A DNA stretch of 64,000 bases from Halarcobacter sp. (lineage in GTDB: Bacteria; Campylobacterota; Campylobacteria; Campylobacterales; Arcobacteraceae), in contig OY781089.1 in assembly GCA_963676565.1 (NCBI GenBank), positions 1 through 64,000 of the forward strand. The letters are read 5' to 3'. Positions 10,579 to 35,199 of this stretch are shown one piece after another. The first letter of the stretch is position 1. Each line of letters starts with the position of its first letter. Both the position numbers and the translations under genes were made by a program. Under the pieces are notes generated by a model, which was given only the letters and a program-made list of their open reading frames with translations, was not told the DNA's origin and ran no database searches.

Positions 10579-10726
10579 CATTTCTAGGGATAAAAAAATT
10601 AGTTTACATAATTAATTTTTATAAAAGATTATATGATTTTAATAAAAAAATAAATCGGTTTAAAGTCATTTAACAAATATATAATTGCGCATTTTGTTAA
10701 AAAAGGTGCAAATAAGGATGGATGAA

Positions 10727-16379: not shown

Positions 16380-18032
16380 ATGAACGCATCAGATTTATTT
16401 ATTAAGGCGTTAGAAAATGAGGGTGTTGAATATATTTTTGGTATTCCCGGGGAAGAAAATCTAGACTTACTAGAAGCACTTAGGAAATCAGATAAAATCA
16501 AATTAATTTTAACAAGACATGAACAAGGTGCAGGTTTTATGGCTGCAACTTACGGAAGACTAACAGGGAAAGTTGGTGTATGTGTTTCTACATTGGGACC
16601 AGGTGCTACTAACTTTGCAACAGCAGCTGCTTATGCACAGCTTGGTGGTATGCCAATGATGATGATTACAGGGCAAAAACCAATCAAAAAATCTAAACAA
16701 GGTAGATTCCAAATTGTTGATATCGTTGGTATGATGAAACCAATGACTAAATACGCTAAACAAGTTGTAAATGGAAATAATGTTCCATCTATGATTAGAG
16801 AAGCATTTAAAATTGCAACAACTGAAAGACCAGGTGCAGTTCATATTGAATTCCCTGAAGATATCTCAGCAGAAGAAGATGTAGAAGATAATGTATATCC
16901 AGTACAAAAGTTCAAATACCCATATGCTGAAAAATCTGCAATCTTAGATGCAGTTAAAATGATTGAAAAAGCAAAAAGACCATTATTATGTATTGGTGGT
17001 GGGGCAAATAGAAGTAGAATAGGAAATGCATTAACTGATTTTGTTAATGATACTGGAATTCCATTCTTCTCTACTCAAATGGGTAAAGGTGTAATTGATG
17101 AAAACCATAAATTATGTTTAAGTACTGCTGCATTATCAAAAGATGACTTTATTCACTGTGCAATTGAAAGAGCAGACTTAATTATCAATGTTGGTCATGA
17201 TGTTATTGAAAAGCCACCATTTTTTATGGAAAATAAACCAGATGCAACAAAAGTATTACATGTAAACTTTTTCCCATCAGAAGTTGATGATACATATTTC
17301 CCACAAATGGACCTATTAGGTGACATTGCAAAAAATATGGAACAAATTACAAATGCTATTTCTAAACAAGAGCACTGGGATTTTGATTACTATATTAGAC
17401 TTGCAGATGAGATTAGAACAAGACTTTCTAAATACTTTGGTGATACTAGATTCCCAATTTTACCTCAAAAAGCAGTTAGAACAATTAGAGAAATTTTAGA
17501 TGATGAAGATATTGTAACACTTGATAATGGTGTATATAAAATCTGGTTTGCAAGAAACTACAGATGTGCAAAACCTAATACTTTATTATTAGATAATGCT
17601 CTTGCAACAATGGGTGCTGGACTTCCATCAGCAATGGCAGCAAAAATGGTTAATCCAGATAAAAAAGTTGTTGCAGTTTGTGGAGATGGTGGGTTTATGA
17701 TGAATGACCAAGAATTAGAGACAGCTGTGAGATTAGGACTTGATTTAACTTGTATTATATTAAATGACAACGCATACGGTATGATTAAATGGAAACAATC
17801 AGGTATGGGATTCGATAACTTTGGACTTGATTTACAAAATCCTGACTTCGTTAAATTTGCAGAAGCATTTGGAGCAAATGGATATAGACCAGAATCTTGT
17901 GAAGAATTTGCTGAAATTCTAGATAAATGTGTAAACAGTAAAGGTGTACACCTAATTGATCTTGCAGTTGATTATTCACTTAACCATACAATTTTAAATG
18001 AACTATTAGCTAAAAAAGCTTGTATGATTTAA
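16380..18032 (+). CDS. ThDP-dependent enzyme, acetolactate synthase large-subunit-like family; possible 2-oxoglutarate decarboxylase
   Basis: IFGIPGEEN, RHEQGAGFMA, GPGATN, GDGGF..NDNAYGMI ThDP motif; no adjacent regulatory small subunit. Confidence 0.88.
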   Translation: MNASDLFIKALENEGVEYIFGIPGEENLDLLEALRKSDKIKLILTRHEQGAGFMAATYGRLTGKVGVCVSTLGPGATNFATAAAYAQLGGMPMMMITGQKPIKKSKQGRFQIVDIVGMMKPMTKYAKQVVNGNNVPSMIREAFKIATTERPGAVHIEFPEDISAEEDVEDNVYPVQKFKYPYAEKSAILDAVKMIEKAKRPLLCIGGGANRSRIGNALTDFVNDTGIPFFSTQMGKGVIDENHKLCLSTAALSKDDFIHCAIERADLIINVGHDVIEKPPFFMENKPDATKVLHVNFFPSEVDDTYFPQMDLLGDIAKNMEQITNAISKQEHWDFDYYIRLADEIRTRLSKYFGDTRFPILPQKAVRTIREILDDEDIVTLDNGVYKIWFARNYRCAKPNTLLLDNALATMGAGLPSAMAAKMVNPDKKVVAVCGDGGFMMNDQELETAVRLGLDLTCIILNDNAYGMIKWKQSGMGFDNFGLDLQNPDFVKFAEAFGANGYRPESCEEFAEILDKCVNSKGVHLIDLAVDYSLNHTILNELLAKKACMI

Positions 18033-18053
18033 TCAAAATTTTAAAGAAGAAGG

Positions 18054-19439
18054 AAATAAATGAGTACAATAGAAGTAACATCACCATTTGATGGAAAAGT
18101 AGTAGGAAGTGTACCTTTTACAGATGTAGAAGGTGTTCAAAAAGCAATTGATACTGCTTATGAAAAGTTTTTAGATAAAGATAACTGGATTCCTAAGCAT
18201 AAAAGAATAGAAATCTTAGAAAACTTAATGGGTATTATGTCTTCTCAGGTTGAAGAATTAACTATCCTTTGTGCTTCTGAAGGTGGTAAACCTTACATGG
18301 ATTCTAAAGTTGAAATTCAAAGAGCTATCAATGGTGTTAAAATCGCTATTGAGCAAATTGGTGCTATTGAAGGTCAAGAAATTGCTATGGGTCATACTGC
18401 TTCATCTGCAAACAGAATGGCTTATACTATGAAAGAACCTATTGGGGTTGTTGCTGCAATATCAGCATTTAACCACCCATTTAACTTAGCTATTCACCAA
18501 GTAATCCCAGCTATTGCTGTTGGTTGTCCTGTTATTATCAGACCTGCAACTCAAACTCCTATGTCTGCTGTTAAATTAGTTGAATTATTAAAAGAAGCTG
18601 GTTTACCTGAAGGTTGGGCTCAAGCTGTTGTTTGTGACAGAGCTGGAGGAGAGTTATTAGTTACATCTCCAAAAACTGCTTTCTTTACATTTATTGGTTC
18701 TGGACCTGTTGGATGGTATTTAAATTCTAAGGCATCTCCTGGAACTAGATCTGCTTTAGAGCATGGTGGAGTTGCTCCTGTTATTGTTGAGCCTGATGCT
18801 GATATTGAAGCTATGATTCCTGATTTAGGAAAAGGTGGTTTTTATCATGCTGGTCAAGTTTGTGTATCAGTTCAAAGAATCTTTGTTCACGAATCAATTG
18901 CAGACGATATTGCAAACAGATTAGCTGATTATGCTAAGAACTTAGTTGTTGGAGATCAATTAGATCCTAAAACTGAGGTTGGTCCACTAATTAACCACAA
19001 CGAAGTTAACAGAGTTGAAGAGTGGGTTAATGAAGCTGTTGAAAAAGGTGGAAAAATTTTAACTGGTGGAAAAAGAATTTCTGATTCTTTATATGAGCCA
19101 ACAGTTATTGTTAATCCTTCTGACGATGCTATTATTTCACAAAAAGAGATTTTTGGTCCTGTAGTTGTTGTTTATTCATACAAAACTTTAGATGAGGCTA
19201 TCAACAGAGCTAATCAACTTGATGTTTCATTCCAAGCTGCTGTATTTACTAAGAACATTGACACTGCACTTAAAGCTGTTAAGAGATTAAATGGTACTGC
19301 TGTTATGGTTAACGACCATACTGCATTTAGAGTTGACTGGATGCCTTTTGGTGGTGCTAAAACTTCTGGTTTAGGTTTAGGTGGTATCCCTGATTCTATG
19401 AACGAAATGCAAAACCAAAAGCTTATGGTTATTAAATCT
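18054..19439 (+). repeat. 1,386-bp direct repeat, copy A (ALDH coding sequence)
   Basis: Matches 33802-35187 wherever compared by eye; the proteins differ only in the last three residues. Confidence 0.92.
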
Positions 19440-19451
19440 CCATCACTTTAA
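18060..19451 (+). CDS. Aldehyde dehydrogenase, copy 1; probable succinate-semialdehyde dehydrogenase
   Basis: FNHPFN, LEHGGVAP, HAGQVCVS catalytic Cys, EIFGP, MPFGG.K.SG. Confidence 0.9.
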   Translation: MSTIEVTSPFDGKVVGSVPFTDVEGVQKAIDTAYEKFLDKDNWIPKHKRIEILENLMGIMSSQVEELTILCASEGGKPYMDSKVEIQRAINGVKIAIEQIGAIEGQEIAMGHTASSANRMAYTMKEPIGVVAAISAFNHPFNLAIHQVIPAIAVGCPVIIRPATQTPMSAVKLVELLKEAGLPEGWAQAVVCDRAGGELLVTSPKTAFFTFIGSGPVGWYLNSKASPGTRSALEHGGVAPVIVEPDADIEAMIPDLGKGGFYHAGQVCVSVQRIFVHESIADDIANRLADYAKNLVVGDQLDPKTEVGPLINHNEVNRVEEWVNEAVEKGGKILTGGKRISDSLYEPTVIVNPSDDAIISQKEIFGPVVVVYSYKTLDEAINRANQLDVSFQAAVFTKNIDTALKAVKRLNGTAVMVNDHTAFRVDWMPFGGAKTSGLGLGGIPDSMNEMQNQKLMVIKSPSL

Positions 19452-19505: not shown

Positions 19506-20255
19506 TTATACTTCGTGGGTATATCCCAAACCATAAATATTTTTAATATGTAAGCCAGGAACTTTTTTTCTTAATCTATATATTAAACTTTTTAAATGAG
19601 TAATATCAGGATTTAAATCAAACTCTTCAAACCAGATAGTATTTATAAGTTCATCAACGGTACAAATCTTCCCATTATTATTTAAAATAGTTTTTACAAA
19701 CCTTATCTCATTTTTTGTTAATTCAATAATTTTATCATTCTCTATTAATTTATTTTTATCTTTATCCCAAATTAAAGTTTCATTGATTCTAACAATACTA
19801 CTATCTTCATTTTTATTATTATGATAAATCTCATTGCAAAGTTTAAACATATCATCTAGGAAAGTTGAGTAATCGATAGGTTTTGTAAAAAATTGATGAA
19901 TTCCTAAATTAACTAAAGGAAGAAGATATTTAAACTCATTTCTAGCTGAAAGAATTACTACCTTTTGATCTTTTTTTATTTTATACAAAGAATCAACTAA
20001 TTCTATCCCATCAAAATTTGGCATCTTAATATCTGAAATTACTAAATCATAATAAGAATTTGTTTCTTTAAAATACTCTTTGTATTTATTTAAAGCGTCC
20101 ATTCCATCAACTGCAGTCTCTACTTTAGGGAAGATATCTTGAAGTAATTCAGTAAATTCTTTTCTAAAATCAGTATCATCTTCAACAAAAAGAATAACCA
20201 TATTTCTAGTATATTTTTTTAATAAACCATAGTCCACTAAAACCCTTTTTTTCAA
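19506..20255 (-). CDS. OmpR/PhoB-family response regulator
   Basis: Receiver domain (VEDD, SDIKMP, LSA, KP) plus winged helix (LTKNE, LIYRLRKK, IYGLGY); exact start uncertain. Confidence 0.9.
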   Translation of the reverse strand: MKKRVLVDYGLLKKYTRNMVILFVEDDTDFRKEFTELLQDIFPKVETAVDGMDALNKYKEYFKETNSYYDLVISDIKMPNFDGIELVDSLYKIKKDQKVVILSARNEFKYLLPLVNLGIHQFFTKPIDYSTFLDDMFKLCNEIYHNNKNEDSSIVRINETLIWDKDKNKLIENDKIIELTKNEIRFVKTILNNNGKICTVDELINTIWFEEFDLNPDITHLKSLIYRLRKKVPGLHIKNIYGLGYTHEV

Positions 20256-20365: not shown

Positions 20366-20395
20366 TACTATTTGACTACTATTTGTTGTTATACT
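20366..20395 (+). promoter_or_regulatory. 11-bp-period direct repeat plus -10 box upstream of the hybrid kinase
   Basis: TACTATTTG-AC-TACTATTTG, then TATACT at 20390-20395. Confidence 0.6.
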
Positions 20396-20419
20396 ACTAA
20401 AAAAGAAAAAAGAATTATT

Positions 20420-21613
20420 ATGATTGATAAACAAATTTTAAATAATATTAATGTACTTTACGCAGAAGATGAATCAATAATCCAAGAGGGTATAAAAGAA
20501 ACCCTCACTCTTTTTGGGATAAATGTAATATGTGCTCAAAATGGTCAAGAGGGATTAGAATTATTTAAAGAATATAATGAAAAAATAGATTTAATATTAA
20601 CCGATATAAAAATGCCAAAACTTGATGGCCTTGGTATGATTGAAAAGATTAGAGAGATAAATAGAGATATTCCTATCATAATCACTACTGCACACCAAGA
20701 AACTAGCTACTTAATGCAATCAATTGAATTAAATATTGATGCTTATGTACTTAAACCTATAAATATTTATAAACTAGAAGAAACCTTAATAAAAGCTATA
20801 GAACCTTCTATTTTAAAACAAAAGCTTATAGAAAAAAATAAAAAATTAGAAATTGAAATAGCAAAAAATGAAGAGAAACAAAAAATCATGGAAGCTCAAT
20901 CAAGATTTGCAGCAATGGGTGAAATGATAAGTATGATAGCCCACCAATGGAGACAACCTTTAGCTTCAATTGGAACTGCTTCATTTAATCTAAAATATAA
21001 ACTTCTTTCAGGAAAATTTGATTCAACTACAAAAGAAGGAAGGGAAGAACAAGCAGAGTTTTTTACTGGTAAACTTGATGAAATAGAGTTTTATGTTCAA
21101 AATCTCACTACAACAATTGATGACTTTAGAAATTTTTACAAAACAGATAAAACCCTTGTAAAAACGTCAATTGACAAATCAATAAAAAGCAGTTTAAAAA
21201 TTTTACAAAAAGACTTAGAAACTAATGATATTGAGATTAAATTAAATTTAGATAGTAAAAATATAATAAATATCTATGAAAATGAGATTACCCATGTATT
21301 TATAAATATTATAAAAAATGCCCAAGATAAATTTTTAGAAAAGAAAATAAAAAATGCCGTTTTAGAAATTACAACAAAAGATTTAAATGATGGAGTAGAA
21401 ATAGAGATTTATGATAATGGAGGAGCTTTTGAAAAAGATAACCTAGATGTTATCTTTGAACCATATTTTTCAACAAAAAAAGAAAAAAATGGAACTGGAA
21501 TTGGGCTTTATATGTCAAAGATAATAATTGAAAACAACCACAATGGTAAAATTAATGCAAAAAACATAAATGAAGGGGTCTCTTTCAATATAATTTTGCA
21601 TAGTATGATATAA
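20420..21613 (+). CDS. Cytoplasmic hybrid protein: receiver domain plus histidine kinase
   Basis: AEDE/TDIKMP/KP receiver, AHQWRQPL H-box, N box, DNGG, FEPYFSTK..GTGIGL; no TM segment; ATG 20420 preferred to TTG 20372. Confidence 0.9.
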   Translation: MIDKQILNNINVLYAEDESIIQEGIKETLTLFGINVICAQNGQEGLELFKEYNEKIDLILTDIKMPKLDGLGMIEKIREINRDIPIIITTAHQETSYLMQSIELNIDAYVLKPINIYKLEETLIKAIEPSILKQKLIEKNKKLEIEIAKNEEKQKIMEAQSRFAAMGEMISMIAHQWRQPLASIGTASFNLKYKLLSGKFDSTTKEGREEQAEFFTGKLDEIEFYVQNLTTTIDDFRNFYKTDKTLVKTSIDKSIKSSLKILQKDLETNDIEIKLNLDSKNIINIYENEITHVFINIIKNAQDKFLEKKIKNAVLEITTKDLNDGVEIEIYDNGGAFEKDNLDVIFEPYFSTKKEKNGTGIGLYMSKIIIENNHNGKINAKNINEGVSFNIILHSMI

Positions 21614-21638: not shown

Positions 21639-24116
21639 TTGAGAATTGTTGTTTTTATATTATTAGTTTTTAATACCCTCTGGGCAAATCAATCTATTCT
21701 AACTAAAGAGGAACAAGATTGGATTAAAAACAACACTTTAAAAGTTGGAATCACAGACCTTTATCCCTTAAGTTATCTTACAAAAGACTATCAAAGAGCT
21801 GGTTTTGCAAATGATATCTTAGCACTTATAATAAAAAAATTCCAAATAAAAAATAGAACAATTGATATTGACCAAGGGAATATTGAATTTGCCTTTGAAA
21901 ATGGTGAAATTGATTTAATTCCGTTAATAAACAACTCTAAAGTTGAGAATGACATTGGAGTATACTCTTCAGAGATTTTAGAAATCAAAAGAGTTTTGTT
22001 TGTAAAAAAAGAGCAAAATGATATAAATTCTATTAGTGATTTAAAACATAAAAAAGTTGCTATTATAAATCAAGCAGGTAATATCTCACATATTTCAACT
22101 AAATATCCCAACATAAAACTAATCGAAACAAAAAATATGGAAGAGTCTGTAAGTTTACTTTTAGAAGGAAATGTTGAAGCATTAATCTCTTCACCAATTA
22201 TTGTTCAAAAATATTTAGAAGATAATCTACTAATTGGTTTAAAAGCTATGCCTTTAATTATTTTTGAACCTACAAATTTGTATTACTTTACAAAAAAGAG
22301 TGAACCTGAACTTCAATCTATTATAGAAAAAGGTTTAAATCAAATAACTATCAAAGAGAGAAAAGAGTTATTTGATAAATGGTTTTTAAAAGATTTAGCT
22401 GATTTACCATTAATATTTACAAAAGAAGAGAAAACCTATTTACAAAAAAAGAGTGCAATTAATATGTGTGTTGATCCAGACTGGATGCCCTATGAAAAGA
22501 TAGAAAACCATAAACATGTTGGTATTGTTGCAGATTATATGAAAGGGTTTCAAGAAAAAATTGGTGTTCCTTTAAAGCTTGTAGAAACAAAAAACTGGAG
22601 CCAATCTTTAGAATATGTTAAAAATAGAAAATGTGATATTTTAGCTTTAGTAATGGATACCCCAAAAAGAAGAGAATATATGAACTTTACAAAACCATAT
22701 ATAACTACTCCTTTGGTGTTGGTTACAAAACGAACAGTTGCTTTTATAAGTGACTTAAAAACCCTAAAAAATAAAAAAATTGGTATCCAAAAAGATTTTG
22801 CATACAATGATATTATTAGAGAAAACTACCCAAATATTCAAGTAATAGACCAAAATCATTTAAGAGATGGATTAAAAAAAGTTGAAAGGGGTGAACTTTT
22901 TGGGCAAGTTACAACACACCTAAATGTTGCCTATGCTTTTCAAGAAGAGTTTTATGGAAGTTTACAAATCTCAGGTAAATTTGATGATGAATGGAGACTA
23001 TCTGTAGGGGTAAGAAATGATGACCCTATTCTTCTAAGTATTTTTGAAAAACTTGTTAGTTCAATTAGTGATGAGACTACTCAAAAAATTATGAATCATT
23101 GGGTGTCAATAAAATTTGAAAAAGTTTTTGATTACCAACTTTTTTGGAAAATATTAGTATTTTTTGTTTTTGTTCTTTCAGTTATTTTATACACATACTT
23201 TTTACAAAGAAAATATATTAGGAAATTAACAAGAGTAAAAGATGAGATACAGATGTTAAATAGTACTTTGGAAAAAAAAGTACAAAGTAGAACCAGTGAA
23301 CTTGAGCTTTCTAATAAAAAACTAAAAGATAAAACCCATGAACTTGAAGATTTGAACAATACCTTAGATATTAAGATAAAAAAAGAGATTGATAATAGAA
23401 AAAAACAAGAACAACTTTTAATCCAACAAAGTAAACTAGCGGAAATGGGAGAGATGATCTCTATGATTGCTCACCAATGGAGGCAACCACTAAGTGCATT
23501 AAGTACAATTATTCAAAATATTCACCTTAGATATTCCCTTGAAAAATTAGATCAGGATTATCTGAATAAGCAGATGGAATTAAGTAATGCTCTAACAGAT
23601 AAAATGTCTAAAACCATAGATGATTTTAGAAACTTTTTTGAACCAAATAAAGAGAAAAAAGCTTTTTCAATTAAAGATGCTATACAAAAAACAATCTTCT
23701 TAATTGATGATAGTTTTAAAAGTAACAGTATAAAAATAGAATATCAAATTTTAGATGATGTTATTATGTATGGGTTTGAAAGTGAACTTTCACAAGTTTT
23801 ATTAAATATTCTTACAAACTCAAAGGATGCTTTTCTAGAAAAAGATATTCAAAGCCCAAAAATTTTAATAAAAACTAAAAAAGTTCAAACCCATATAAAA
23901 ATAATGATTTCTGATAATGCAGGTGGGATTAATGAATCAATTATAAATAAAGTCTTTGAGCCCTATTTTACTACAAAAGAGAGCTACAATGGAACTGGCC
24001 TTGGATTATACATGAGTAAAATCATTATTGAACAAAATATGAAAGGTCAATTAAGTGTAAAAAATATTCAAAATGGAGTTGAATTTACAATTTATATACC
24101 ATTGAAAATAAATTAA
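21639..24116 (+). CDS. Sensor histidine kinase with two periplasmic substrate-binding (Venus flytrap) domains
   Basis: Signal peptide, two PBP-type repeats (LTKEEQDWIK.., FTKEEKTYL..CVDPDWMPYE), one TM, coiled coil, AHQWRQPL, GTGLGL. Confidence 0.9.
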   Translation: MRIVVFILLVFNTLWANQSILTKEEQDWIKNNTLKVGITDLYPLSYLTKDYQRAGFANDILALIIKKFQIKNRTIDIDQGNIEFAFENGEIDLIPLINNSKVENDIGVYSSEILEIKRVLFVKKEQNDINSISDLKHKKVAIINQAGNISHISTKYPNIKLIETKNMEESVSLLLEGNVEALISSPIIVQKYLEDNLLIGLKAMPLIIFEPTNLYYFTKKSEPELQSIIEKGLNQITIKERKELFDKWFLKDLADLPLIFTKEEKTYLQKKSAINMCVDPDWMPYEKIENHKHVGIVADYMKGFQEKIGVPLKLVETKNWSQSLEYVKNRKCDILALVMDTPKRREYMNFTKPYITTPLVLVTKRTVAFISDLKTLKNKKIGIQKDFAYNDIIRENYPNIQVIDQNHLRDGLKKVERGELFGQVTTHLNVAYAFQEEFYGSLQISGKFDDEWRLSVGVRNDDPILLSIFEKLVSSISDETTQKIMNHWVSIKFEKVFDYQLFWKILVFFVFVLSVILYTYFLQRKYIRKLTRVKDEIQMLNSTLEKKVQSRTSELELSNKKLKDKTHELEDLNNTLDIKIKKEIDNRKKQEQLLIQQSKLAEMGEMISMIAHQWRQPLSALSTIIQNIHLRYSLEKLDQDYLNKQMELSNALTDKMSKTIDDFRNFFEPNKEKKAFSIKDAIQKTIFLIDDSFKSNSIKIEYQILDDVIMYGFESELSQVLLNILTNSKDAFLEKDIQSPKILIKTKKVQTHIKIMISDNAGGINESIINKVFEPYFTTKESYNGTGLGLYMSKIIIEQNMKGQLSVKNIQNGVEFTIYIPLKIN

Positions 24117-24202: not shown

Positions 24203-25924
24203 ATGGATACATGGATTTTAGTTTTAGTTATCTTCTCTATGATAATCTTTATGTGGTACATTCACGACAAATATGTACAAAGAAAACATCAAATTTTAGT
24301 TAATTATCCAATAATAGGGAGACTAAGGTTTGTTTTCCAAGAGTTCAGGGAGCCATTTAGACAATACTTTGGTGATGAAAAGTTTTATGAGTCTATGGAT
24401 AAACTTGACTGGGTTTATAATGCAGCTAGGGATAAAACAAATTTTGCTTCTTTTTCTCCTGCTCAACCAATGCAAAAACCAAAACTAATGTTAAAACATA
24501 CAAATATTGTTTTAAATGATGATGAAGTTGAAACTGATTTTTCAATTACCTTTGGGGAAGAAAGAAAACAACCATTTTATGCTAAGTCATTGATAGGAAG
24601 AGGCCCTATGAGTGATGGTTCCATTTCACCTGAAGGAACTAGAGCCTTCGTTCTTGGTGCAAAAGAGGGACACTTCCCAATTAATTCAGGTGAAGGTGGT
24701 TTAACTTCAAACTTTTTTGTAAGTCATAGTAACTATGATACAAGATATATGAAAGAGGTAAAAGGTACACCTTTTGAAGAAAAAATATTCAAAATTTGTA
24801 AAATCTTATTTAATGTTCCTGTTGCTATAGACTTTTATAGAAAAATAGTTTTTAGAAAAGATCCCTTAGCTGATACATATGTTTTTAATAAAGATAAAGA
24901 GTGTTTTTATAGACCAAATTGGGATGCACCTTTAGATGTTTTTCCTAAAAATGTTCCAGATGATATACCTGATATTATTTTACAAATAAGTTCTGGTTTT
25001 TATGGAGTTAGAGACAAAGAGGGTAACTTTGATATTGAACGATATAAAAAACAAATGAGTTTTTGTCGTATGACTGAGATTAAAATTGCCCAAGGTGCAA
25101 AACAAACTGGGGGTAAACTTATTGCTTCAAAAGTAACTCCAACTATTGCTTATTATAGAAATATTGAACCTAATAAAGATGCTTTTTCTCCTAATAGATT
25201 CCCTTATGCTAAATCATATGAGGAGTTATTTGATTTTATTGGAGAGCTTCAAGAAGCTTCTTCTAAACCTGTAGGGATTAAAATAGTAATCTCTGATAAT
25301 GATAATATTGTACCTATTGCAAAAGAGATAAAAAGAAGAGTTAATTTAAATCTTCCATATCCAGATTATATTTCTATTGATGGTGGAAGTGGAGGAAGTG
25401 CTACAGCTCCACTTGAAATGATGGAAAGAATTGGAATGGATATTAGAGATGCCATTTATTTAGTTGATAAAGTATTAAAAGAGTATGAAATTAGGGATAA
25501 AGTAAAAATTAGTGCAAGTGGTAAGATATTAACCCCTGATGATGTAATTATTACTTTATGTCTTGGTGCTGATTTTATACAAATAGCAAGAGGTTTTATG
25601 ATGAGTGCTGGTTGTATTAGAGCTAGATATTGTTCTGGAGCTAGTAAACACCAATGTCCAGTAGGACTTGCAACTCAAGATATTAAAAAAAGAAAACACT
25701 ATTTTGTAAAAAAACATTCAGATTATATAAAAAACTACCATAACAATATTCTAAAAAATATGAAAAGTTTATTAGCAGTTATGGGATTAAAAAATGTAAA
25801 TGAGTTAGATAAAGAGAAGTTAATCTTTTTAGATAGAGACTCTATCATTCATGATGATATTGAAAGTGTTTTTGAAAGAAGAGTTTTTAACAATAAACAA
25901 ACTAATAGTAGCCCGGTAAACTAA
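24203..25924 (+). CDS. Membrane-anchored FMN-binding glutamate synthase family protein
   Basis: N-terminal TM, MSDGSIS, NSGEGG, EIKIAQGAK, IDGGSGGSA, GCIRARYC..CPVGLATQ Fe-S motif; no amidotransferase domain. Confidence 0.88.
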   Translation: MDTWILVLVIFSMIIFMWYIHDKYVQRKHQILVNYPIIGRLRFVFQEFREPFRQYFGDEKFYESMDKLDWVYNAARDKTNFASFSPAQPMQKPKLMLKHTNIVLNDDEVETDFSITFGEERKQPFYAKSLIGRGPMSDGSISPEGTRAFVLGAKEGHFPINSGEGGLTSNFFVSHSNYDTRYMKEVKGTPFEEKIFKICKILFNVPVAIDFYRKIVFRKDPLADTYVFNKDKECFYRPNWDAPLDVFPKNVPDDIPDIILQISSGFYGVRDKEGNFDIERYKKQMSFCRMTEIKIAQGAKQTGGKLIASKVTPTIAYYRNIEPNKDAFSPNRFPYAKSYEELFDFIGELQEASSKPVGIKIVISDNDNIVPIAKEIKRRVNLNLPYPDYISIDGGSGGSATAPLEMMERIGMDIRDAIYLVDKVLKEYEIRDKVKISASGKILTPDDVIITLCLGADFIQIARGFMMSAGCIRARYCSGASKHQCPVGLATQDIKKRKHYFVKKHSDYIKNYHNNILKNMKSLLAVMGLKNVNELDKEKLIFLDRDSIIHDDIESVFERRVFNNKQTNSSPVN

Positions 25925-26267: not shown

Positions 26268-27572
26268 ATGGTTACTCCTATGAAAAAAACGGTTAACAAA
26301 GATTTGCAAGAAAGAAAAAACAAAGTATTTGCTAGAGGGCAAGGAAATGCTTATTCAAACTTTGTTGAGAAAGCAAAAAACGGAGAAGTATGGGATGTTG
26401 AAGGGAATAGATTTATTGACTTCGGTTCTGGAATAGCAGTGTGTAATACAGGACACTCACATCCAAAAATTATTGAAGCAGTTAAAAATCAAATTGAGAA
26501 TTTTTCTCATACATGTGTTATGGTTAACCCATATGAAGTTGCTGTTGAATTAGCTGAAAAATTAACTGCAATAGCTCCAGGTGAAAGTGAAAAAAAAGCT
26601 ATTTTTGTAACAACTGGTGCTGAAGCTGTTGAAAACTGTGTAAAAATTGCTAGAGCTCATACTGGAAGAAGAGGTGTGATTGCATTTAATGGTGGTTTTC
26701 ATGGTAGAACTAATATGACTATGGCTCTTACAGGAAAAACTATGCCTTATAAAAAAGGATTTGGACCATTTCCTGCTGAAATATATCACTTACCATATCC
26801 AACAAAACTTAATGGTACTAGCGTTAAAGATACTTTAACTGCATTAAAAAACCTATTTAAAGTAGATATTCTAGCTGAAGATGTTGCTGCAATTATTATT
26901 GAACCAATTCAAGGGGAAGGTGGTTTTTACCAAACTCCAGTAGAACTATTACAAGAGCTTAGAAGAATATGTGACGAAAATGGAATTGTATTAATCATTG
27001 ATGAGATTCAAACTGGATTTGCTAGAACAGGAAAAATGTTCAATATTGAATATGCTGGAATTGAACCAGATTTAATGACTATGGCAAAAGGTATAGCTGG
27101 TGGATATCCACTATCAGCAGTTGTTGGAAAAGCAGAAATTATGGATTCTCCAATCCCTGGTGGATTAGGTGGAACTTATGGTGGTTCTCCAGTTGGATGT
27201 GCAGCAGGACTTGCAGTATTAGAGATTATTGAAGAGGAAGATTTAATCAATAGAGCAAATCAAATTGGAGATATTTTCAATAGAAGATTAAACGAACTAA
27301 AAGACAAATACCCAGCATTAATTTCAGATGTAAGAAATAAAGGAGCAATGATTGCTTTAGAACTTATGATTGATGGTGATATAGAAAATCCAAATGCAGA
27401 GCTTACAAAAGCGATTACTGCAAATGCAGCAGAATATGGATTAATTCTTTTAGCTTGTGGATTTAATGCAAATGTAATTAGATTCTTACCTGCTTTAACT
27501 ATGAGTGATGAGACAGTTAATGAAGGTATTGACAAATTTACTGAGCTATTTGAAAGTTTAGTACAAAATTAA
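26268..27572 (+). CDS. gabT: 4-aminobutyrate:2-oxoglutarate transaminase (class III PLP aminotransferase; DavT activity possible)
   Basis: WDVEGNRFIDF, TGAEAVENCVKIAR, FHGRT, EPIQGEGG, DEIQTGFARTG, MAKGIAGG PLP Lys, GLGGTYGG. Confidence 0.9.
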   Translation: MVTPMKKTVNKDLQERKNKVFARGQGNAYSNFVEKAKNGEVWDVEGNRFIDFGSGIAVCNTGHSHPKIIEAVKNQIENFSHTCVMVNPYEVAVELAEKLTAIAPGESEKKAIFVTTGAEAVENCVKIARAHTGRRGVIAFNGGFHGRTNMTMALTGKTMPYKKGFGPFPAEIYHLPYPTKLNGTSVKDTLTALKNLFKVDILAEDVAAIIIEPIQGEGGFYQTPVELLQELRRICDENGIVLIIDEIQTGFARTGKMFNIEYAGIEPDLMTMAKGIAGGYPLSAVVGKAEIMDSPIPGGLGGTYGGSPVGCAAGLAVLEIIEEEDLINRANQIGDIFNRRLNELKDKYPALISDVRNKGAMIALELMIDGDIENPNAELTKAITANAAEYGLILLACGFNANVIRFLPALTMSDETVNEGIDKFTELFESLVQN

Positions 27573-27670: not shown

Positions 27671-28693
27671 ATGAAATTATTTTCAAGTATAAAGAAAAGT
27701 TTAATGACAACATCTGTTGTTGCATTATTAGGTATTATGGGACTTGTTGATACTGCATCTGCAGCTCAAAACTGGAGGTTCTCAAACCTATACGGAAGAG
27801 GAACAGCATTTGGTGATTTATATCAACAATTAGCTAAAGATATTGAAAAAAATACAAATGGTGAAGTTAAAGTTCAAGTACTATTCTCAGGAGAAGGTGT
27901 TGGAACTTCAGGTCTTTTAGGTGCAACTAAATCTGGTCTTATTACTATGGCTGCTCCATTCCAATCAATGCATGCTGGTGAATTACCTGCAGGTGTAGTT
28001 GAAATTGGTTTACCAGGTGGTACAGCAGATACTGATGAATTATATAAACTTTTCCATGAAGATGGTTGGGATAAAATTCTTAAAAAAGCATACGGTTCTC
28101 AAGGTTTAGTATGGTTAGAGCCATATATTCAACCACCAGTATATATTATTACTAAAAAACCAATCGAATCAATTGCTGATTTCCAAGGTTTAAAAATTAG
28201 AGCTCCAGGTGCTTATGGTAAATTTTTAAGAAACTTAGGTGCTTCTCCTGTTTCATTAGCATGGAGTGAAATCTATACAAGTTTAGCTACTGGTGTTATT
28301 GATGGTTCTATTGGTTCTAATATGATTGACCACAGAGATGGAAACCACGTAGAAGTTGCTAAATATATGTATAAATTACCATTAGCAGGTGCACAAGTTT
28401 TACCAATCGTTGTAAATAGAAATGCTTGGAATAAATTAAGTGATGCAGCTAAAAAAGGTGTTTATGATGCAACTGTAACTCACGCTAAAAACCAATTAAC
28501 TATGTCTAAAAAATGGGAATCTGAAGCTGTTGCACAAATGGAAGCAAAAGGTCTTAAATGGTCTCCAGAGCCATCTGCAGCGGATAAAGAAGCTTGGGCA
28601 AAAGCAGGTGCTGGACTTTGGGATGAATATGCATCAAAAGATAAATACAGCAAAGAATTAATTGATGTATTAAAAAATAGACAAGCTAAATAA
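27671..28693 (+). CDS. dctP: TRAP transporter substrate-binding protein (DctP family)
   Basis: Signal peptide, DFQGLKIRAPG, EIYTSLATGVIDG. Confidence 0.9.
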   Translation: MKLFSSIKKSLMTTSVVALLGIMGLVDTASAAQNWRFSNLYGRGTAFGDLYQQLAKDIEKNTNGEVKVQVLFSGEGVGTSGLLGATKSGLITMAAPFQSMHAGELPAGVVEIGLPGGTADTDELYKLFHEDGWDKILKKAYGSQGLVWLEPYIQPPVYIITKKPIESIADFQGLKIRAPGAYGKFLRNLGASPVSLAWSEIYTSLATGVIDGSIGSNMIDHRDGNHVEVAKYMYKLPLAGAQVLPIVVNRNAWNKLSDAAKKGVYDATVTHAKNQLTMSKKWESEAVAQMEAKGLKWSPEPSAADKEAWAKAGAGLWDEYASKDKYSKELIDVLKNRQAK

Positions 28694-28715
28694 CCAAGTA
28701 TTAATAGGCTTTATT

Positions 28716-29255
28716 ATGTTTAAAAAATTCCTACAAAAATTTTGCATTACAATCGATACGATTATAATGTTGTTAGGAAAGGGGGCATCATTTTTGATGC
28801 CTGTCCTTGCCTTTATCGTTTCCTACGAGGTTGTTGCAAGATATTTATTTGATGCACCGACCATTTGGGCTTATGACTTATCCTTATTTCTATTTGGATA
28901 TATAGCAGCTTTAGGAGGAGCTTATGCTCAACAAAAAAGATCACATATTAATGTGGATATTTTGTATTTATTAGTTTCTCCTAAGGTTAAAAACATCTTC
29001 AACATCATCTCTTTTTCACTAGGGGTATTTTTCCTAGTTATTGTTTTTAAAATGGGTTTATTAAAATTTAATGAAGCTTTAGAGTTTGATTACAGAAGAC
29101 AAAGTGAATGGGCACCTGTAATGTGGCACTTTTGGCTTATGCTTTGTGTTGCAAGTTCAGTGTTTACCATGCAATTAATTAGAGATATTATTGATGAAGG
29201 TTATCAACTTTTTACAGGATCACCTTTAATTGAAAAGGATGTGCAAAATGATTAG
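28716..29255 (+). CDS. dctQ: TRAP transporter small permease
   Basis: YEVVARYLF.APTIWA, HINVDIL; four TM segments. Confidence 0.9.
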   Translation: MFKKFLQKFCITIDTIIMLLGKGASFLMPVLAFIVSYEVVARYLFDAPTIWAYDLSLFLFGYIAALGGAYAQQKRSHINVDILYLLVSPKVKNIFNIISFSLGVFFLVIVFKMGLLKFNEALEFDYRRQSEWAPVMWHFWLMLCVASSVFTMQLIRDIIDEGYQLFTGSPLIEKDVQND

Positions 29256-30576
29256 TGTTGAATTATTGACTATTGTTTTATTGTTTTTTATTTTAATCTT
29301 CTTTGCACTTGGTGCACCTGTAGGGTTAGCACTTGGTGGAATAGCAATGATGGTAGGTTACTTTACATGGGGAGATGGAATTTTTAATGTAATTCCAACA
29401 ACCGTTGAAGCAACTTTTTTTAGTTTTATTTTATTAGCTATTCCATTATATATCTATATGGGGCAACTACTAACCCATTCTGGTATCGGTGATGCTATGT
29501 TTAAAGCAAGTCAATTACTAATTGGTAGAATTAGAGGTTCATTAGCAATTAGTGTTGTATTTATCTGTTCTATGATTGGAGCGATGGTTGGTATTATTGG
29601 AGCTGGGATTATGAGTTCTGGAAGTATCGCATTAAGACCAATGCTAGATGCAGGTTATAATAAAAGATTAGCCCTTGGAACAATTATGGCTGGTGGAGCT
29701 TTAGGTATTTTAATTCCACCAAGTATTCCAATGATTATGTTCGCAGCTTCAACTCAAAACTCTGTAGGAAGAATGTTCCTTGGAGCAATGGTACCTGCAC
29801 TTATAACAATCATTTTACTTATTGCTTATATTGTAATTAGTTCTATAATTAAACCTGAAAATGCGCCATTACTTAGTGAAAACAATCCAGGTTTACCAAA
29901 ACTAAAAGGGAAAGAAAAACTAAGAGTATTTAGAGATGGTTTTCTTTCAATTGGATTAATTTTTGTTGTACTTGGAAGTATCATTAGTGGTATTGCTACT
30001 CCAACTGAATCAGGAGCTTTAGGTGTTGTAGGAGCTATTTTACTTGCAATATTCTTTAAAAGATTTAAACTAGAGATGATGAGAACAGTTGGACTTCAAA
30101 CTGGTATCTTAGTAAGTGTTGCTATGTGGATTATCTTAGGAGCTTCAGTATTTAGTAACTTCCACTTATTAATGGGTATTCAAGGTATGATTGCAGACTT
30201 TACTGGTGGTTTAGATTTACCTCCTATTATGATTATTATTATGTTCCAATTAATAATGCTTTTCTTAGGTTTTATTATTGATGAATTTATTATCGTATTG
30301 ATGTGTGCACCATTATTTACACCTATTGCTGTATCTTTAGGATATGACCCAATTTGGTTTGGTGTTTTAATGATTATTAATATTTTAATTGCTGTACAAA
30401 CTCCACCATATGGTTTTGCACTATTTTATTTAAAAGGGATTGCGCCACCAGAAGTTGGAATGGGTGAAATTTATAAATCAGTTACGCCATTTATTTTAGT
30501 TAATTTAACAGTTCTTATTATTTGTATGCTTTTTCCAGAGATTGTTCTTTGGCTACCAAATAAAGTAATGGGTTAA
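29248..30576 (+). CDS. dctM: TRAP transporter large permease
   Basis: LLAIPLY, LGILIPPSIPMI, ATPTESGA, DPIWFG, TPPYG; ATG 29248 after AAGGA. Confidence 0.92.
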   Translation: MISVELLTIVLLFFILIFFALGAPVGLALGGIAMMVGYFTWGDGIFNVIPTTVEATFFSFILLAIPLYIYMGQLLTHSGIGDAMFKASQLLIGRIRGSLAISVVFICSMIGAMVGIIGAGIMSSGSIALRPMLDAGYNKRLALGTIMAGGALGILIPPSIPMIMFAASTQNSVGRMFLGAMVPALITIILLIAYIVISSIIKPENAPLLSENNPGLPKLKGKEKLRVFRDGFLSIGLIFVVLGSIISGIATPTESGALGVVGAILLAIFFKRFKLEMMRTVGLQTGILVSVAMWIILGASVFSNFHLLMGIQGMIADFTGGLDLPPIMIIIMFQLIMLFLGFIIDEFIIVLMCAPLFTPIAVSLGYDPIWFGVLMIINILIAVQTPPYGFALFYLKGIAPPEVGMGEIYKSVTPFILVNLTVLIICMLFPEIVLWLPNKVMG

Positions 30577-30609: not shown

Positions 30610-31743
30610 ATGGAATTTTCATATTTAAACCCTACTCAAATTGAGTTTGGTCAAGGTAAAATTAGTAGTATATCTTCGCTGATTCCAAAAGATTATAAAG
30701 TATTATTTATATATGGCGGAGGAAGTATAAAAAGAAATGGAGTATATGACCAAGTAATTGATGCACTAGAAGGATACAAGTATTTTGAATTTAGCGGAGT
30801 AGAACCAAACCCAACAAAAGAGACTCTTGACAAGGCAATAAAACTTGCAAAAGATGAAAATGTAGATTTTATCTTAGCTGTTGGTGGGGGGTCTGTTATT
30901 GATGGAGCAAAATATGTTGCACACTCTTATTATTATGAAGGTGATGGATGGGATATTTTAGAAGGTAAATATATCTCTGAAAAAGCCTTACCAATAGGAG
31001 CAATTGTAACACTTGCTGCAACAGGAAGTGAATCAAATACAGGATCAGTTATCACAAAAGCCCAAACAAAAGAAAAAAGATTTTTTAGATCTGTTCACTC
31101 TTTTCCAAAGTTTGCTGTTATGGATCCTAGTGTATTAAAAAGTTTAGATGATAGACAAATTAAAAATGGTCTTGTGGACGCCTTTGTTCATACTTGTGAA
31201 CAATATTTAACTTATAAACAAGGGATGATAGCACAAGATAATTATGCAGAAGGTATTTTAAGAGGTCTTATCACTTTAGCTAATAATGTTGATAACAGAG
31301 ATGATTTATGGTATGCAAATCTTTTATGGTTAGCAAATCAGGCATTTAACGGTCTTATTGGTGCAGGGGTTACTCAAGATTGGGCTACACACTATATAGG
31401 ACATGAACTTACTGGATTATATGGGATAGATCATGCAAGAACCCTTGCTATTATTCAACCAAATCTATTTAGAGTATTAAAAGAGCACAAGGCAGGGAAA
31501 CTATTACAAATGGGTGAAAATGTATTTAGAATAGATACAACTGACCCAGATATTATTATCAATAAAATAGAAGAGTTATATAAGTCATTAGATATTGACT
31601 TAAAAATCTCTGATTATACAGATGATAAAGAGGTAAAAGAAAAAGTTATCCCATTACTTATAAAACACGGCTTTAGTAAACTAGGTGAAAACCAAATTGT
31701 TGATACTAATATTGTGGAAAAAGTACTTGATAAATCAATGTAA
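30610..31743 (+). CDS. Iron-containing alcohol dehydrogenase, YqhD-like
   Basis: NPTQIEFGQG, YGGGSIK, AVGGGSVIDG, TGSESN, DWATH..GHELT..IDHARTL. Confidence 0.88.
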   Translation: MEFSYLNPTQIEFGQGKISSISSLIPKDYKVLFIYGGGSIKRNGVYDQVIDALEGYKYFEFSGVEPNPTKETLDKAIKLAKDENVDFILAVGGGSVIDGAKYVAHSYYYEGDGWDILEGKYISEKALPIGAIVTLAATGSESNTGSVITKAQTKEKRFFRSVHSFPKFAVMDPSVLKSLDDRQIKNGLVDAFVHTCEQYLTYKQGMIAQDNYAEGILRGLITLANNVDNRDDLWYANLLWLANQAFNGLIGAGVTQDWATHYIGHELTGLYGIDHARTLAIIQPNLFRVLKEHKAGKLLQMGENVFRIDTTDPDIIINKIEELYKSLDIDLKISDYTDDKEVKEKVIPLLIKHGFSKLGENQIVDTNIVEKVLDKSM

Positions 31744-31751
31744 AAGGACTA

Positions 31752-32204
31752 ATGATGTTTAAAAAAATTTTGGTGCCACTTCATCTTGACTATACAGAAA
31801 ACCATGAAAAACTTTTTGCTGGAGCATTAGAAGTTTTAAATGATGAAGAGGGGAAACTATCTTTACTATATGTAAATGAGAATAGAGCACATGGTTCTGT
31901 TTACCCTATTTTAGATGAAGAGAATGAAAAGCATTATAACCATGATGCTTATATTGAGCTAAAGAAAATTGCACAAAAGCATAAACTTCCAGAGGACAAA
32001 ATCTCTTTTAATATTAGAGATGGTTCTGCCCATAGAGAAATTCTTGAAGAAGCAAGAAGAATAAAAGCAGATGCAATTGTTATGATGGCAACAAAACCAG
32101 GACTTGGAAGCTATTTTATCAGTAGTACTCCTGAAAGAGTAATAAGACACGCAAATTGTTCAGTTTTTGTCATTAGACTTACTGATTATCAAAGTATAAA
32201 ATAA
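31752..32204 (+). CDS. Universal stress protein (TRAP-associated, TeaD-like)
   Basis: FKKILVP.., ADAIVM, SSTPERVIRHANCSVFVI. Confidence 0.88.
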   Translation: MMFKKILVPLHLDYTENHEKLFAGALEVLNDEEGKLSLLYVNENRAHGSVYPILDEENEKHYNHDAYIELKKIAQKHKLPEDKISFNIRDGSAHREILEEARRIKADAIVMMATKPGLGSYFISSTPERVIRHANCSVFVIRLTDYQSIK

Positions 32205-32221
32205 AAGCTCGTTAATAGTTT

Positions 32222-32261
32222 AAAGTTATAGGGAGAAGAACAATCTCTTTATAACTTTTTT
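32222..32261 (+). terminator. Intrinsic terminator closing gabT-dctPQM-adh-usp
   Basis: AAAGTTATAGGGAGA-N7-TCTCTTTATAACTTT, then a T run. Confidence 0.7.
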
Positions 32262-32282
32262 AAAACATTCTTAGGATAAATA

Positions 32283-33236
32283 TTGAACAAATTTAAAAAA
32301 TATGAACACTCTCCCTCATTTTTACTTTTCATTGGATTATTATCCTCTTTATTTTTTACCGTAACTTTTTTAATAAATAGATCAATTTCCCTTGATGGAG
32401 GACACTGGTTTTATTCTGGTGGTTTAAGACTTGTATATGCAATTTCATTTTTTACTTTTGGATTTATAGTTTTTAAAGGGATGTCTTATTTTAAATTAAT
32501 TATCAAAGAATATTTAGAGAATTTTATATTTTGGACAGTAGCAGGTAGTATTGGATTTGGAGGTTTTTATTCTTTACTTTGTTATTCTGCTTCTTTTTCC
32601 CCTGCATGGATTGTAGCTACAACATGGCAAATTACTATAATATCATCTTTATTTGTATTGACTTTTTTTGGCAAAAAGTTATCTAAAAAAATTTGGTTTT
32701 TTACTATATTTATTTTTACAGGAATCATTTTAGTAAATTTAAGTCATTTTGAAAGTAGTAATTTAGAAGCTCTTTTTTTAGGTTCAATTCCCGTATTTGT
32801 AGCATCCTTTTGTTATCCAATTGGAAATCAAATGGTATGGGAAGAAAAGAAAAAAAGGAAAGAAAAAAAAGAAGACTTAGGTGTAATAAACAATAGCTTT
32901 GTAAAAGTATTTTTACTTGTTTTAGGAAGTTTCCCATTTTGGGTAATTCTTTACTTTTTATCTGATCCTGTAGCACCTAATACTTCTCAATATATTAGTG
33001 TTGCAATCATTACAATAATCTCAGGAATATTAGCTACATCACTTTTTTTGTATGCTAGATCTCAAGCTACTACTTCAAGTACATTAATGATTGTAGATTC
33101 AACACAATCAAGTCAAGTTTTTTTTGCCCTAGGAGGAGAAATGCTTTTTTTAAATGCATCTTTACCTAATACACTAGGGCTAATTGGAATTGCAATAACA
33201 ATTATTGGTTTAATTGCAATAACAAAAAGTAAATAA
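32283..33236 (+). CDS. DMT-superfamily transporter (multidrug-efflux-like, B. subtilis YjlA-type)
   Basis: About ten TM segments; FF..TFLINR.ISL.GGHW, PAWIVATTWQ, YPIGNQ, GILAT.LF..A. Confidence 0.75.
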   Translation: MNKFKKYEHSPSFLLFIGLLSSLFFTVTFLINRSISLDGGHWFYSGGLRLVYAISFFTFGFIVFKGMSYFKLIIKEYLENFIFWTVAGSIGFGGFYSLLCYSASFSPAWIVATTWQITIISSLFVLTFFGKKLSKKIWFFTIFIFTGIILVNLSHFESSNLEALFLGSIPVFVASFCYPIGNQMVWEEKKKRKEKKEDLGVINNSFVKVFLLVLGSFPFWVILYFLSDPVAPNTSQYISVAIITIISGILATSLFLYARSQATTSSTLMIVDSTQSSQVFFALGGEMLFLNASLPNTLGLIGIAITIIGLIAITKSK

Positions 33237-33255
33237 TTTAGATAAGGATTATAAA

Positions 33256-33768
33256 GTGGGAAATCTAATTTCTACAAAAAATTCAGATTATGATTTACAA
33301 ATAGCAACAGTTGAAGATTCGCAATTAATTGTAACTTTCATGAAAAAACTTGGTAAATATCAAAAAATGGAAGATTTGATAACAGCAACACCTGAACGTA
33401 TAAAAAGATTATTAGAAGAAAAATTAGGGGAAGCAGTTTTTGGTATTTATAAAAAAGAGATAGTTTCTTTTGCATATTTTCATCAAAAAAGTTCCGCTTT
33501 TTCTGGTCGAAAAGGAGTTTATATTGATGCTTTTTTTATAGAAGATCATGTAAGGGGGAAAGGTTTAGGGGAAATTATGTTTCATTATCTTTCAAAGTAT
33601 TCTGTAGATATAGGTTGTGAATACCTAGAATGGGCTTGTTTAGATTGGAATAAATCAGCAATAAAATTTTATGAAAAACAAGGAGCTTATTGCATAGATA
33701 ATTTAAGACTCTATCGATTATCTCCAGATACATTATTTTTAAATTCTAAAAATTTTGTGTCAAACTAA
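33256..33768 (+). CDS. GNAT N-acetyltransferase, diamine/spermidine acetyltransferase-like
   Basis: RGKGLG acetyl-CoA motif, GC..LEW.CLDWN.SAI.FYEK.GA. Confidence 0.8.
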   Translation: MGNLISTKNSDYDLQIATVEDSQLIVTFMKKLGKYQKMEDLITATPERIKRLLEEKLGEAVFGIYKKEIVSFAYFHQKSSAFSGRKGVYIDAFFIEDHVRGKGLGEIMFHYLSKYSVDIGCEYLEWACLDWNKSAIKFYEKQGAYCIDNLRLYRLSPDTLFLNSKNFVSN

Positions 33769-33801
33769 AATAATAAATATAAATTAAATTTAAAAAAAGG
33801 A

Positions 33802-35187: not shown

Positions 35188-35199
35188 AGCGCTTTATAA
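33808..35199 (+). CDS. Aldehyde dehydrogenase, copy 2; probable succinate-semialdehyde dehydrogenase
   Basis: Protein identical to 18060..19451 except the C-terminal KSSAL vs KSPSL. Confidence 0.9.
   Translation: MSTIEVTSPFDGKVVGSVPFTDVEGVQKAIDTAYEKFLDKDNWIPKHKRIEILENLMGIMSSQVEELTILCASEGGKPYMDSKVEIQRAINGVKIAIEQIGAIEGQEIAMGHTASSANRMAYTMKEPIGVVAAISAFNHPFNLAIHQVIPAIAVGCPVIIRPATQTPMSAVKLVELLKEAGLPEGWAQAVVCDRAGGELLVTSPKTAFFTFIGSGPVGWYLNSKASPGTRSALEHGGVAPVIVEPDADIEAMIPDLGKGGFYHAGQVCVSVQRIFVHESIADDIANRLADYAKNLVVGDQLDPKTEVGPLINHNEVNRVEEWVNEAVEKGGKILTGGKRISDSLYEPTVIVNPSDDAIISQKEIFGPVVVVYSYKTLDEAINRANQLDVSFQAAVFTKNIDTALKAVKRLNGTAVMVNDHTAFRVDWMPFGGAKTSGLGLGGIPDSMNEMQNQKLMVIKSSAL

Follow-up and report, generated by a model that had tools for sequence, protein, structure and literature searches.

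A two-gene operon at positions 16380–19451 of the window, the first 64 kb of the closed 3.34-Mb genome of Halarcobacter sp. (contig OY781089.1; about 30% G+C, 99.97% complete), probably encodes a route from 2-oxoglutarate to succinate by way of succinic semialdehyde (SSA) that is independent of both coenzyme A (CoA) and ferredoxin. The first gene encodes a thiamine diphosphate (ThDP)-dependent enzyme (P0001) that resembles acetolactate synthases, and the second an aldehyde dehydrogenase (ALDH; P0002). Both open reading frames of the initial annotation are present as stated, and on their sequence they are read here as a single operon.

16380..18032, + strand: ThDP enzyme, 550 aa, proposed 2-oxoglutarate decarboxylase, with Glu48, the ThDP motif G435-D436-G437 and active-site Lys387 and Lys472 (NF006187, 862 bits)
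18033..18059, + strand: junction of 27 nt with a ribosome-binding site of the GAAGGA type before the second ATG
18060..19451, + strand: ALDH copy 1, 463 aa, proposed SSA dehydrogenase, with Glu234, Cys268 and the triad Arg88/Tyr262/Arg424

In the proposed mechanism, the ThDP enzyme would decarboxylate 2-oxoglutarate non-oxidatively to SSA, with Lys472 and Lys387 holding the distal carboxylate of the substrate. The second step, which can be proposed more firmly than the first, would be the oxidation of SSA to succinate with NAD(P)+ by an ALDH21-like dehydrogenase, whose Arg88, Tyr262 and Arg424 would hold the SSA carboxylate. Substrates, cofactor and physiological role are deduced here from gene content, synteny, residues and distribution, which were observed directly. 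The operon lies in an island conserved in the family of the window (Arcobacter, Aliarcobacter and Halarcobacter where relatives are named). Because gabT and a duplicate of the ALDH gene also lie in this island, SSA would be a shared intermediate of two feeder routes, 2-oxoglutarate decarboxylation and 4-aminobutyrate (GABA) transamination, which draw on one shared dehydrogenase.

Phylogeny and active site of the ThDP enzyme

On sequence grounds, P0001 is not the acetolactate synthase of the cell, since an ilvB-ilvH pair is encoded elsewhere in the genome and alsD is missing, and since the protein fails the models for catabolic acetolactate synthase (AlsS) and acetohydroxyacid synthase (AHAS), falls in a clade of its own and carries a lysine at the acceptor column. 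The ilvB gene of the genome (TIGR00118, 807 bits; cut-off 538) is located at 2.226 Mb with ilvH directly downstream, and the acetolactate decarboxylase model for alsD (TIGR01252) gave 0 matches in the 99.97% complete closed genome. The neighbourhood of the ThDP gene is likewise free of ilvN/H, ilvC and alsD, as the initial annotation had stated. P0001 scores below the AlsS models (NF006378, 448.2 bits against 510; TIGR02418, 400.6 against 551.1) and below the AHAS model (TIGR00118, 390.9 against 538.35). The three Pfam domains PF02776, PF00205 and PF02775 are found in P0001, which has the same three-domain fold as AlsS of Bacillus subtilis (PDB 4rjj) and Klebsiella pneumoniae (1ozf), matched at 270–307 bits.

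A FastTree phylogeny was built from 100 full-length representatives drawn from a search of 1.84 billion proteins. AHAS (6 rows) and AlsS (8 rows) each form one clade with a support of 100. P0001 is placed outside both, in a third clade of 31 rows with the motif N-x-V-Y-K (support 100). V-x-A-H-K is the motif of a fourth clade (30 rows, support 94), and the tree leaves the order of the AlsS, V-x-A-H-K and N-x-Y-K clades unresolved.

The only model passed by P0001 is NF006187 (PRK08322, “acetolactate synthase large subunit”), at 862.1 bits against a cut-off of 509. Among 14 control genomes, those of B. subtilis and Methanosarcina acetivorans also pass and that of Synechococcus elongatus fails, and the model was dropped as a membership test because B. 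subtilis passes and S. elongatus fails. Some representatives of the AlsS models, such as P0219, pass it as well. This “equivalog” appears from these sequence scores to lump AlsS-like and OgdA-like proteins under one name. A search of the ESM Atlas returned solely clusters of the “acetolactate synthase” type, and the named relatives nearest to P0001 (Halarcobacter, Arcobacter and Aliarcobacter, 85–89% identity) are all labelled “acetolactate synthase large subunit”. A protein from a “eukaryotic” transcriptome (P0021) shares 89% identity with P0001 and probably reflects bacterial contamination of that data set.

In alignments to solved AlsS structures, the column of Lys472 holds Gln487 in B. subtilis AlsS and also Gln in K. 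pneumoniae AlsS, and the column of Lys387 holds Ala or His; AHAS-model representatives have Trp at the column of Lys472. P0001 thus differs from AlsS in having Lys472 for Gln487, as well as in its scores below the model cut-offs, its separate clade and the lack of alsD. The closest solved structure, PDB 13bb, also titled “acetolactate synthase” (518 bits over residues 2–543), shares Lys at 472 with P0001 and differs from it at positions 387 (Met) and 466 (Leu).

The 2-oxoglutarate decarboxylase MaKGD of Microcystis has been assayed, and in a docked model its K386 forms a hydrogen bond and its K471 a salt bridge with 2-oxoglutarate (PMC10418658). P0001 Lys387 and Lys472 correspond to these two lysines, and Glu48, G435-D436-G437 and D463 align with MaKGD E50, D435 and D462. 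Among the modelled contacts of MaKGD (V382, A408, L467, Q254, K386 and K471), the positions of K387, K472 and A409 are kept in P0001, and the Q254 column is unreliable. The N-terminal motif LENEGVEYIFGIPGEENL (P0001 residues 11–28), from which a resemblance to cyanobacterial OgdA had initially been read, is present in the protein as quoted. It is not diagnostic of OgdA: the motif is common to the whole ThDP-enzyme group, and as a search pattern it matched 600 stretches.

The aldehyde dehydrogenase partner

P0002, which consists of one Aldedh domain and contains the quoted motifs LEHGG and GGFYHAGQVCVSVQR, belongs to the ALDH21-like group proposed for it earlier, with 294 bits to moss ALDH21 (PDB 5mz5) and the SSA-binding triad retained. 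In the moss enzyme, the SSA carboxylate is held by Arg121, Tyr296 and Arg457 (bioRxiv 10.64898/2026.01.13.699213). These residues align with Arg88, Tyr262 and Arg424 of P0002, in which the catalytic Cys268 and Glu234 are also kept; the triad is absent from all four other ALDHs of the genome. ALDH21 of Physcomitrium (PDB 5mz5/5mz8) is an NADP-dependent SSA dehydrogenase (SSADH; Kopecna 2017, as cited in bioRxiv 10.64898/2026.01.13.699213). P0002 has the catalytic Cys and Glu and the triad in common with it, and differs in being bacterial and operon-linked to a ThDP enzyme. Two other ALDH structures, 5kf0 (309 bits) and 5jry (302 bits), are slightly nearer to P0002 than 5mz5 is. Against the GabD model TIGR01780, P0002 reaches 312.7 bits, under the cut-off of 646, and no ALDH in the genome exceeds this cut-off (best score 388.8), so that no GabD-type SSADH was found.

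Pairing of the two genes in other genomes

The 80 best genome loci, with 56–86% identity to P0001, were surveyed, 75 of them with at least 1000 nt of downstream sequence. They come from many phyla, and those with a taxon name include Arcobacter, Sulfurovum, Burkholderia, sphingomonads, Alteromonadales and Bacteroidota. In 63 of the 80, the ThDP gene is followed immediately by a co-directional ALDH gene, with one further case (L039) in which the caller of open reading frames ran upstream, and any other neighbour recurs in at most 12. The triad is present in 57 of 61 full-length partners, comprising all 27 with at least 50% identity to P0002 (P0002 included) and 30 of the 34 more distant ones. 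The four triad-less partners, together with a haloarchaeal plasmid partner, have their best match in the NADP-SSADH model PRK09406 (575–607 bits, under the cut-off of 730), and the ThDP enzymes beside the four share 59–64% identity with P0001. Since the triad-less partners match PRK09406 best, non-orthologous replacement of the partner ALDH would appear to bring in an SSADH-like enzyme. The ALDH partner would then mark the product of the ThDP enzyme as SSA.

The ThDP sub-branch of P0001 also occurs in two natural fusions with a triad-bearing ALDH, all with the N-x-Y-K/K472 pattern. Fusion P0123 is a single sequence of 1016 aa with 60% identity to P0001 and 54% to P0002, and the other is a G+C-rich cluster of three members (P0137, P0273 and P0274; 1019–1121 aa) with an Ala/Pro/Ser-rich linker of about 80 residues.

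Several plasmids carry related genes. On a Halorarius halobius plasmid (L091, 4604–7587), an annotated NAD-dependent SSADH gene overlaps the start of a V-x-H-K “acetolactate synthase” gene by 4 nt, and the same pairing is found on a Haloarcula plasmid. A homologue of 59.5% identity is located on plasmid pTTS12 of Pseudomonas putida S12 (L089, 6992–8635), with a flavin adenine dinucleotide (FAD) monooxygenase gene on one side and srpR and srpS, regulators of a solvent pump, on the other.

The gabT island and the second ALDH copy

Upstream of the operon are two dynamin-like GTPases followed by a 342-aa protein. The GTPase pair (795 and 667 aa, 10685–15075) shows weak matches to the bacterial dynamin DynA, and the 342-aa protein that follows it (15145–16173) gave no family match. 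Downstream, beginning with a response regulator, the following features were found.

19506..20255, − strand: OmpR-type response regulator, convergent with ALDH copy 1, in a block conserved among relatives
20372..21613, + strand: hybrid receiver/histidine kinase (family search and synteny of relatives)
21639..24116, + strand: histidine kinase that may be the sensor of the island, with two periplasmic stretches of the amino-acid-binding type (SBP_bac_3; Pfam and synteny)
24203..25924, + strand: glutamate-synthase-like flavin mononucleotide (FMN) protein, 573 aa (PF01645 only; same place in relative G414)
26268..27572, + strand: gabT, 4-aminobutyrate–2-oxoglutarate transaminase, which makes SSA (TIGR00700, 582 bits; cut-off 507)
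27671..30576, + strand: tripartite ATP-independent periplasmic (TRAP) transporter dctP-dctQ-dctM (family searches)
30610..31743, + strand: iron-type alcohol dehydrogenase (family searches; no counterpart in the blocks of G425, G243 and G414)
31752..33768, + strand: universal stress protein, PF13536-type membrane transporter and GNAT acetyltransferase (family searches)
33808..35199, + strand: ALDH copy 2, last gene of the gabT array, homogenised with copy 1
35491..36519, + strand: second TRAP solute-binding protein, a dctP paralogue
36654..38695, + strand: sucC-sucD, succinyl-CoA synthetase of the canonical route, both above model cut-offs

The gene order of ThDP enzyme, ALDH, response regulator, two kinases, gabT, dctPQM, universal stress protein and ALDH is also found in the relatives G425 and G243, and is split over two places in G414. 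In the window, the iron-type alcohol dehydrogenase and the PF13536-type transporter with the GNAT gene (32283–33768) are inserted in the gabT array; the G425 and G243 blocks lack these insertions, and G414 has the transporter only. The glutamate-synthase-like protein may feed the pathway with 2-oxoglutarate from glutamate, and a role of the alcohol dehydrogenase as SSA/4-hydroxybutyrate reductase is only a guess.

The reuse of the same ALDH in the gabT cluster, noted in the initial annotation, is confirmed by the match between copies 2 and 1 in 461 of 463 residues. At the DNA level, the first 1380 nt are the same in both copies and 7 of the last 9 differ, and the identity tract (18052–19439 and 33800–35187) begins about 8 nt ahead of the ATG and stops 9 nt short of the end. 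An independent ALDH pair with 0 differences in 1383 nt is found in G243, which belongs to another genus (L093, 3439–4821 and 14589–15971), and identity between the copies is lower in G414 (79.9%) and in G425 (73.9%). In the ALDH tree, ThDP-adjacent and gabT-cluster copies do not separate: one well-supported clade unites the gabT-cluster copies of G414, G425 and the genome of the window (G000) with the ThDP-adjacent copies of G009, G408, G422 and G000. From these sequence comparisons, the two ALDH loci appear to have been exchanged or homogenised among relatives. With GabT making SSA and no GabD-type SSADH passing the cut-off, this interchange would be the best evidence that an SSA dehydrogenase is required at both loci.

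In two metatranscriptome runs of the same study, contigs of 90–99% likeness cover 24 and 25 of the 30 bins of the operon, with 0 flanking bins covered, and one 601-nt contig of a relative spans the gene junction (17597–18197). These contigs are weak evidence of expression, as they come from relatives and the libraries may contain DNA. A promoter scan gave 12 promoter-like sites against a mean of 18.7 in shuffled sequences, and a terminator scan gave nothing convincing.

Place in central metabolism and distribution

The genome has complete oorDABC and sucCD, and the proposed route would therefore be parallel or extra to them. No sucA-like gene and no glutamate decarboxylase gene were found in the genome, because of which no other internal route from 2-oxoglutarate to SSA is predicted. 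The “TCA shunt” of the initial annotation (TCA, tricarboxylic acid) thus holds in its chemistry, the conversion of 2-oxoglutarate via SSA to succinate, which several independent comparative lines support best. The term has to be qualified, as the route runs alongside OorDABC and SucCD and fills no gap.

Of 401 sampled genomes of the phylum, 24 were above the cut-off: G000, 21 of the 23 other members of its family, and 2 from outside it. Among 41 genomes sampled within the family, 16 have both the ThDP gene and sucC, 12 the ThDP gene only, 11 sucC only and 2 neither (G409, 85% complete, and G426, 78% complete), in counts that treat relatives as if they were independent. An ALDH gene follows the ThDP gene throughout this sample except in G409. 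The pattern of sucC and the ThDP gene is consistent with redundancy. Members of the family are aerotolerant. The genome paper of A. butzleri (Miller et al., 2007; PMC2147049), where the term “acetolactate” has 0 occurrences, reported that SucCD is absent. A literature search gave no paper joining “Arcobacter” with “2-oxoglutarate decarboxylase”, and the single passage among the matches listed that joined the decarboxylase term with a taxon name was off-topic.

Comparison with known 2-oxoglutarate decarboxylases

A cyanobacterial bypass formed by OgdA/KGD and SsaD was reportedly described by Zhang and Bryant in 2011 (Synechococcus sp. PCC 7002 A2770/A2771). In the cyanobacterial systems (PCC 7002 A2770/A2771, Synechocystis Sll1981 and Microcystis MaKGD), as in the window, an ALS-like ThDP enzyme adjoins an aldehyde dehydrogenase. 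The proposed chemistry, from 2-oxoglutarate through SSA to succinate, is the same, and the lysines K386 and K471 are kept here. Differences concern the sub-branch, which from published residue numbers only is V-x-A-H-K for OgdA and N-x-V-Y-K here, and the partner, which is ALDH21-like here and SsaD in cyanobacteria. SsaD is GabD1-like. The cyanobacterial bypass replaces a missing 2-oxoglutarate dehydrogenase route, whereas the route proposed here is parallel to Oor and SucCD and sits in a gabT island. The mycobacterial SucA-type 2-oxoglutarate decarboxylase/HOAS (Rv1248c) also decarboxylates 2-oxoglutarate with ThDP (PMC10418658). Unlike P0001, it belongs to the unrelated E1-type family, of which the genome holds no sucA-like member.

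Candidates for a cyanobacterial OgdA sequence were sought among the representatives. P0204, chosen by MaKGD residue numbers, proved to be a Rhodobacteraceae protein, and P0140, chosen by spacing, was rejected because its relatives are methanogen and other archaeal proteins only, down to 55% identity. Searches by tblastn of P0001, P0143, P0184 and P0140 against plasmids gave no cyanobacterial records (P0184 had no match at 1e-80), and no cyanobacterial names appeared in two protein-cluster look-ups.

Discussion

Several observations weigh against the reading of the operon as a 2-oxoglutarate-to-succinate route. With both canonical enzymes present, the operon is not needed to close the cycle, and the complementarity with sucC weighs less than the raw numbers suggest. 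The pass of NF006187 carries little information on function. The best NCBIfam match of P0002 is a lactaldehyde dehydrogenase model (390 bits, cut-off 650). Of the 75 loci whose downstream sequence is long enough, 11 have no ALDH adjoining the ThDP gene, and neither do the pTTS12 copy and the copies on Rhizobium leguminosarum plasmids. To our knowledge, no member of the N-x-Y-K clade has been assayed. Three modelled MaKGD positions differ in P0001 (V382 to N383, H385 to Y and L467 to M468), and the contacts themselves derive from docking into an AlphaFold model and not from a crystal structure (PMC10418658). OgdA/MaKGD seems to fit the V-x-A-H-K clade and not that of P0001, a placement made from published residue identities and spacing only, with the methanogen-type representative P0140 as the best fit. 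From those published residue numbers, P0001 would be a sister lineage of OgdA and not its orthologue.

These clade and contact differences leave room for a ThDP enzyme that decarboxylates or ligates another 2-oxo acid with an anionic tail, such as 2-oxoadipate, oxaloacetate at C1 or a sulfonated or hydroxylated analogue, with the ALDH oxidising the resulting aldehyde and the link to SSA only partial. The triad of the ALDH would also suit other omega-carboxy aldehydes, and the closest solved structure, titled just “acetolactate synthase”, has Met at the position of Lys387. Such a substrate is nevertheless unlikely, as ThDP enzymes of 59–64% identity at four loci pair with a GabD1-type SSADH-like protein, the same ALDH ends the gabT cluster in a genome with no GabD above the cut-off, and a succinate end product is suggested by the complementarity with sucC. 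It is far less probable still that P0001 is a true catabolic acetolactate synthase, as annotated. The name of the NF006187 equivalog (862 bits, passed also by B. subtilis, which has AlsS) and the titles of the nearest PDB entries, all acetolactate synthases, speak for it. The protein is, however, under both AlsS-specific cut-offs and outside the AlsS clade, with Lys in place of the AlsS Gln487; alsD is missing, ilvB-ilvH lies elsewhere, and the ALDH partner of 63 of the 80 loci has no place in the acetoin pathway.

A different role for the same chemistry is possible, if rather doubtful: the pair could be an oxygen-tolerant stand-in for Oor, plus SucCD, that runs an oxidative TCA cycle in air, and not an accessory of amino-acid and GABA use. 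The concentration of the gene in the family of the window (22 of the 24 passing genomes of the phylum sample), its presence in 12 of 12 sucC-less family genomes once G409 and G426 are set aside, and the reported lack of SucCD in A. butzleri (Miller et al., 2007; PMC2147049) argue for this role. The conserved neighbours are, on the other hand, an amino-acid-binding sensor, gabT and a transporter, which suggests induction by substrate. In the preferred reading of the operon as a CoA- and ferredoxin-independent route through SSA, the module probably comes into use with a supply of amino acids or GABA, or where the oxygen-sensitive Oor limits the flux.

The chemistry is already known, and both enzymes probably fall in sub-branches without an assayed member; the gene pair is widespread and would be mislabelled. 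As a tentative extension from the sequence comparisons, N-x-Y-K “acetolactate synthases” and ALDH21-like ALDHs might form a widespread second lineage of 2-oxoglutarate bypass. In the Arcobacter-like family it might replace succinyl-CoA synthetase, which could explain the SucCD gap of A. butzleri and provide an oxygen-insensitive path round Oor, and repeated gene conversion might keep its ALDH exchangeable with the copy of the GABA pathway.

If the proposed route is correct, a family that spans Arcobacter, Burkholderia, sphingomonads and Bacteroidota has been misnamed “acetolactate synthase large subunit” in a curated model, and a path from 2-oxoglutarate to succinate would be absent from metabolic reconstructions of these organisms. 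For the family of the window, the operon offers a testable answer to the SucCD step reported missing when the first A. butzleri genome was published. In this genome, SSA would then be a hub with two feeder routes and one dehydrogenase.

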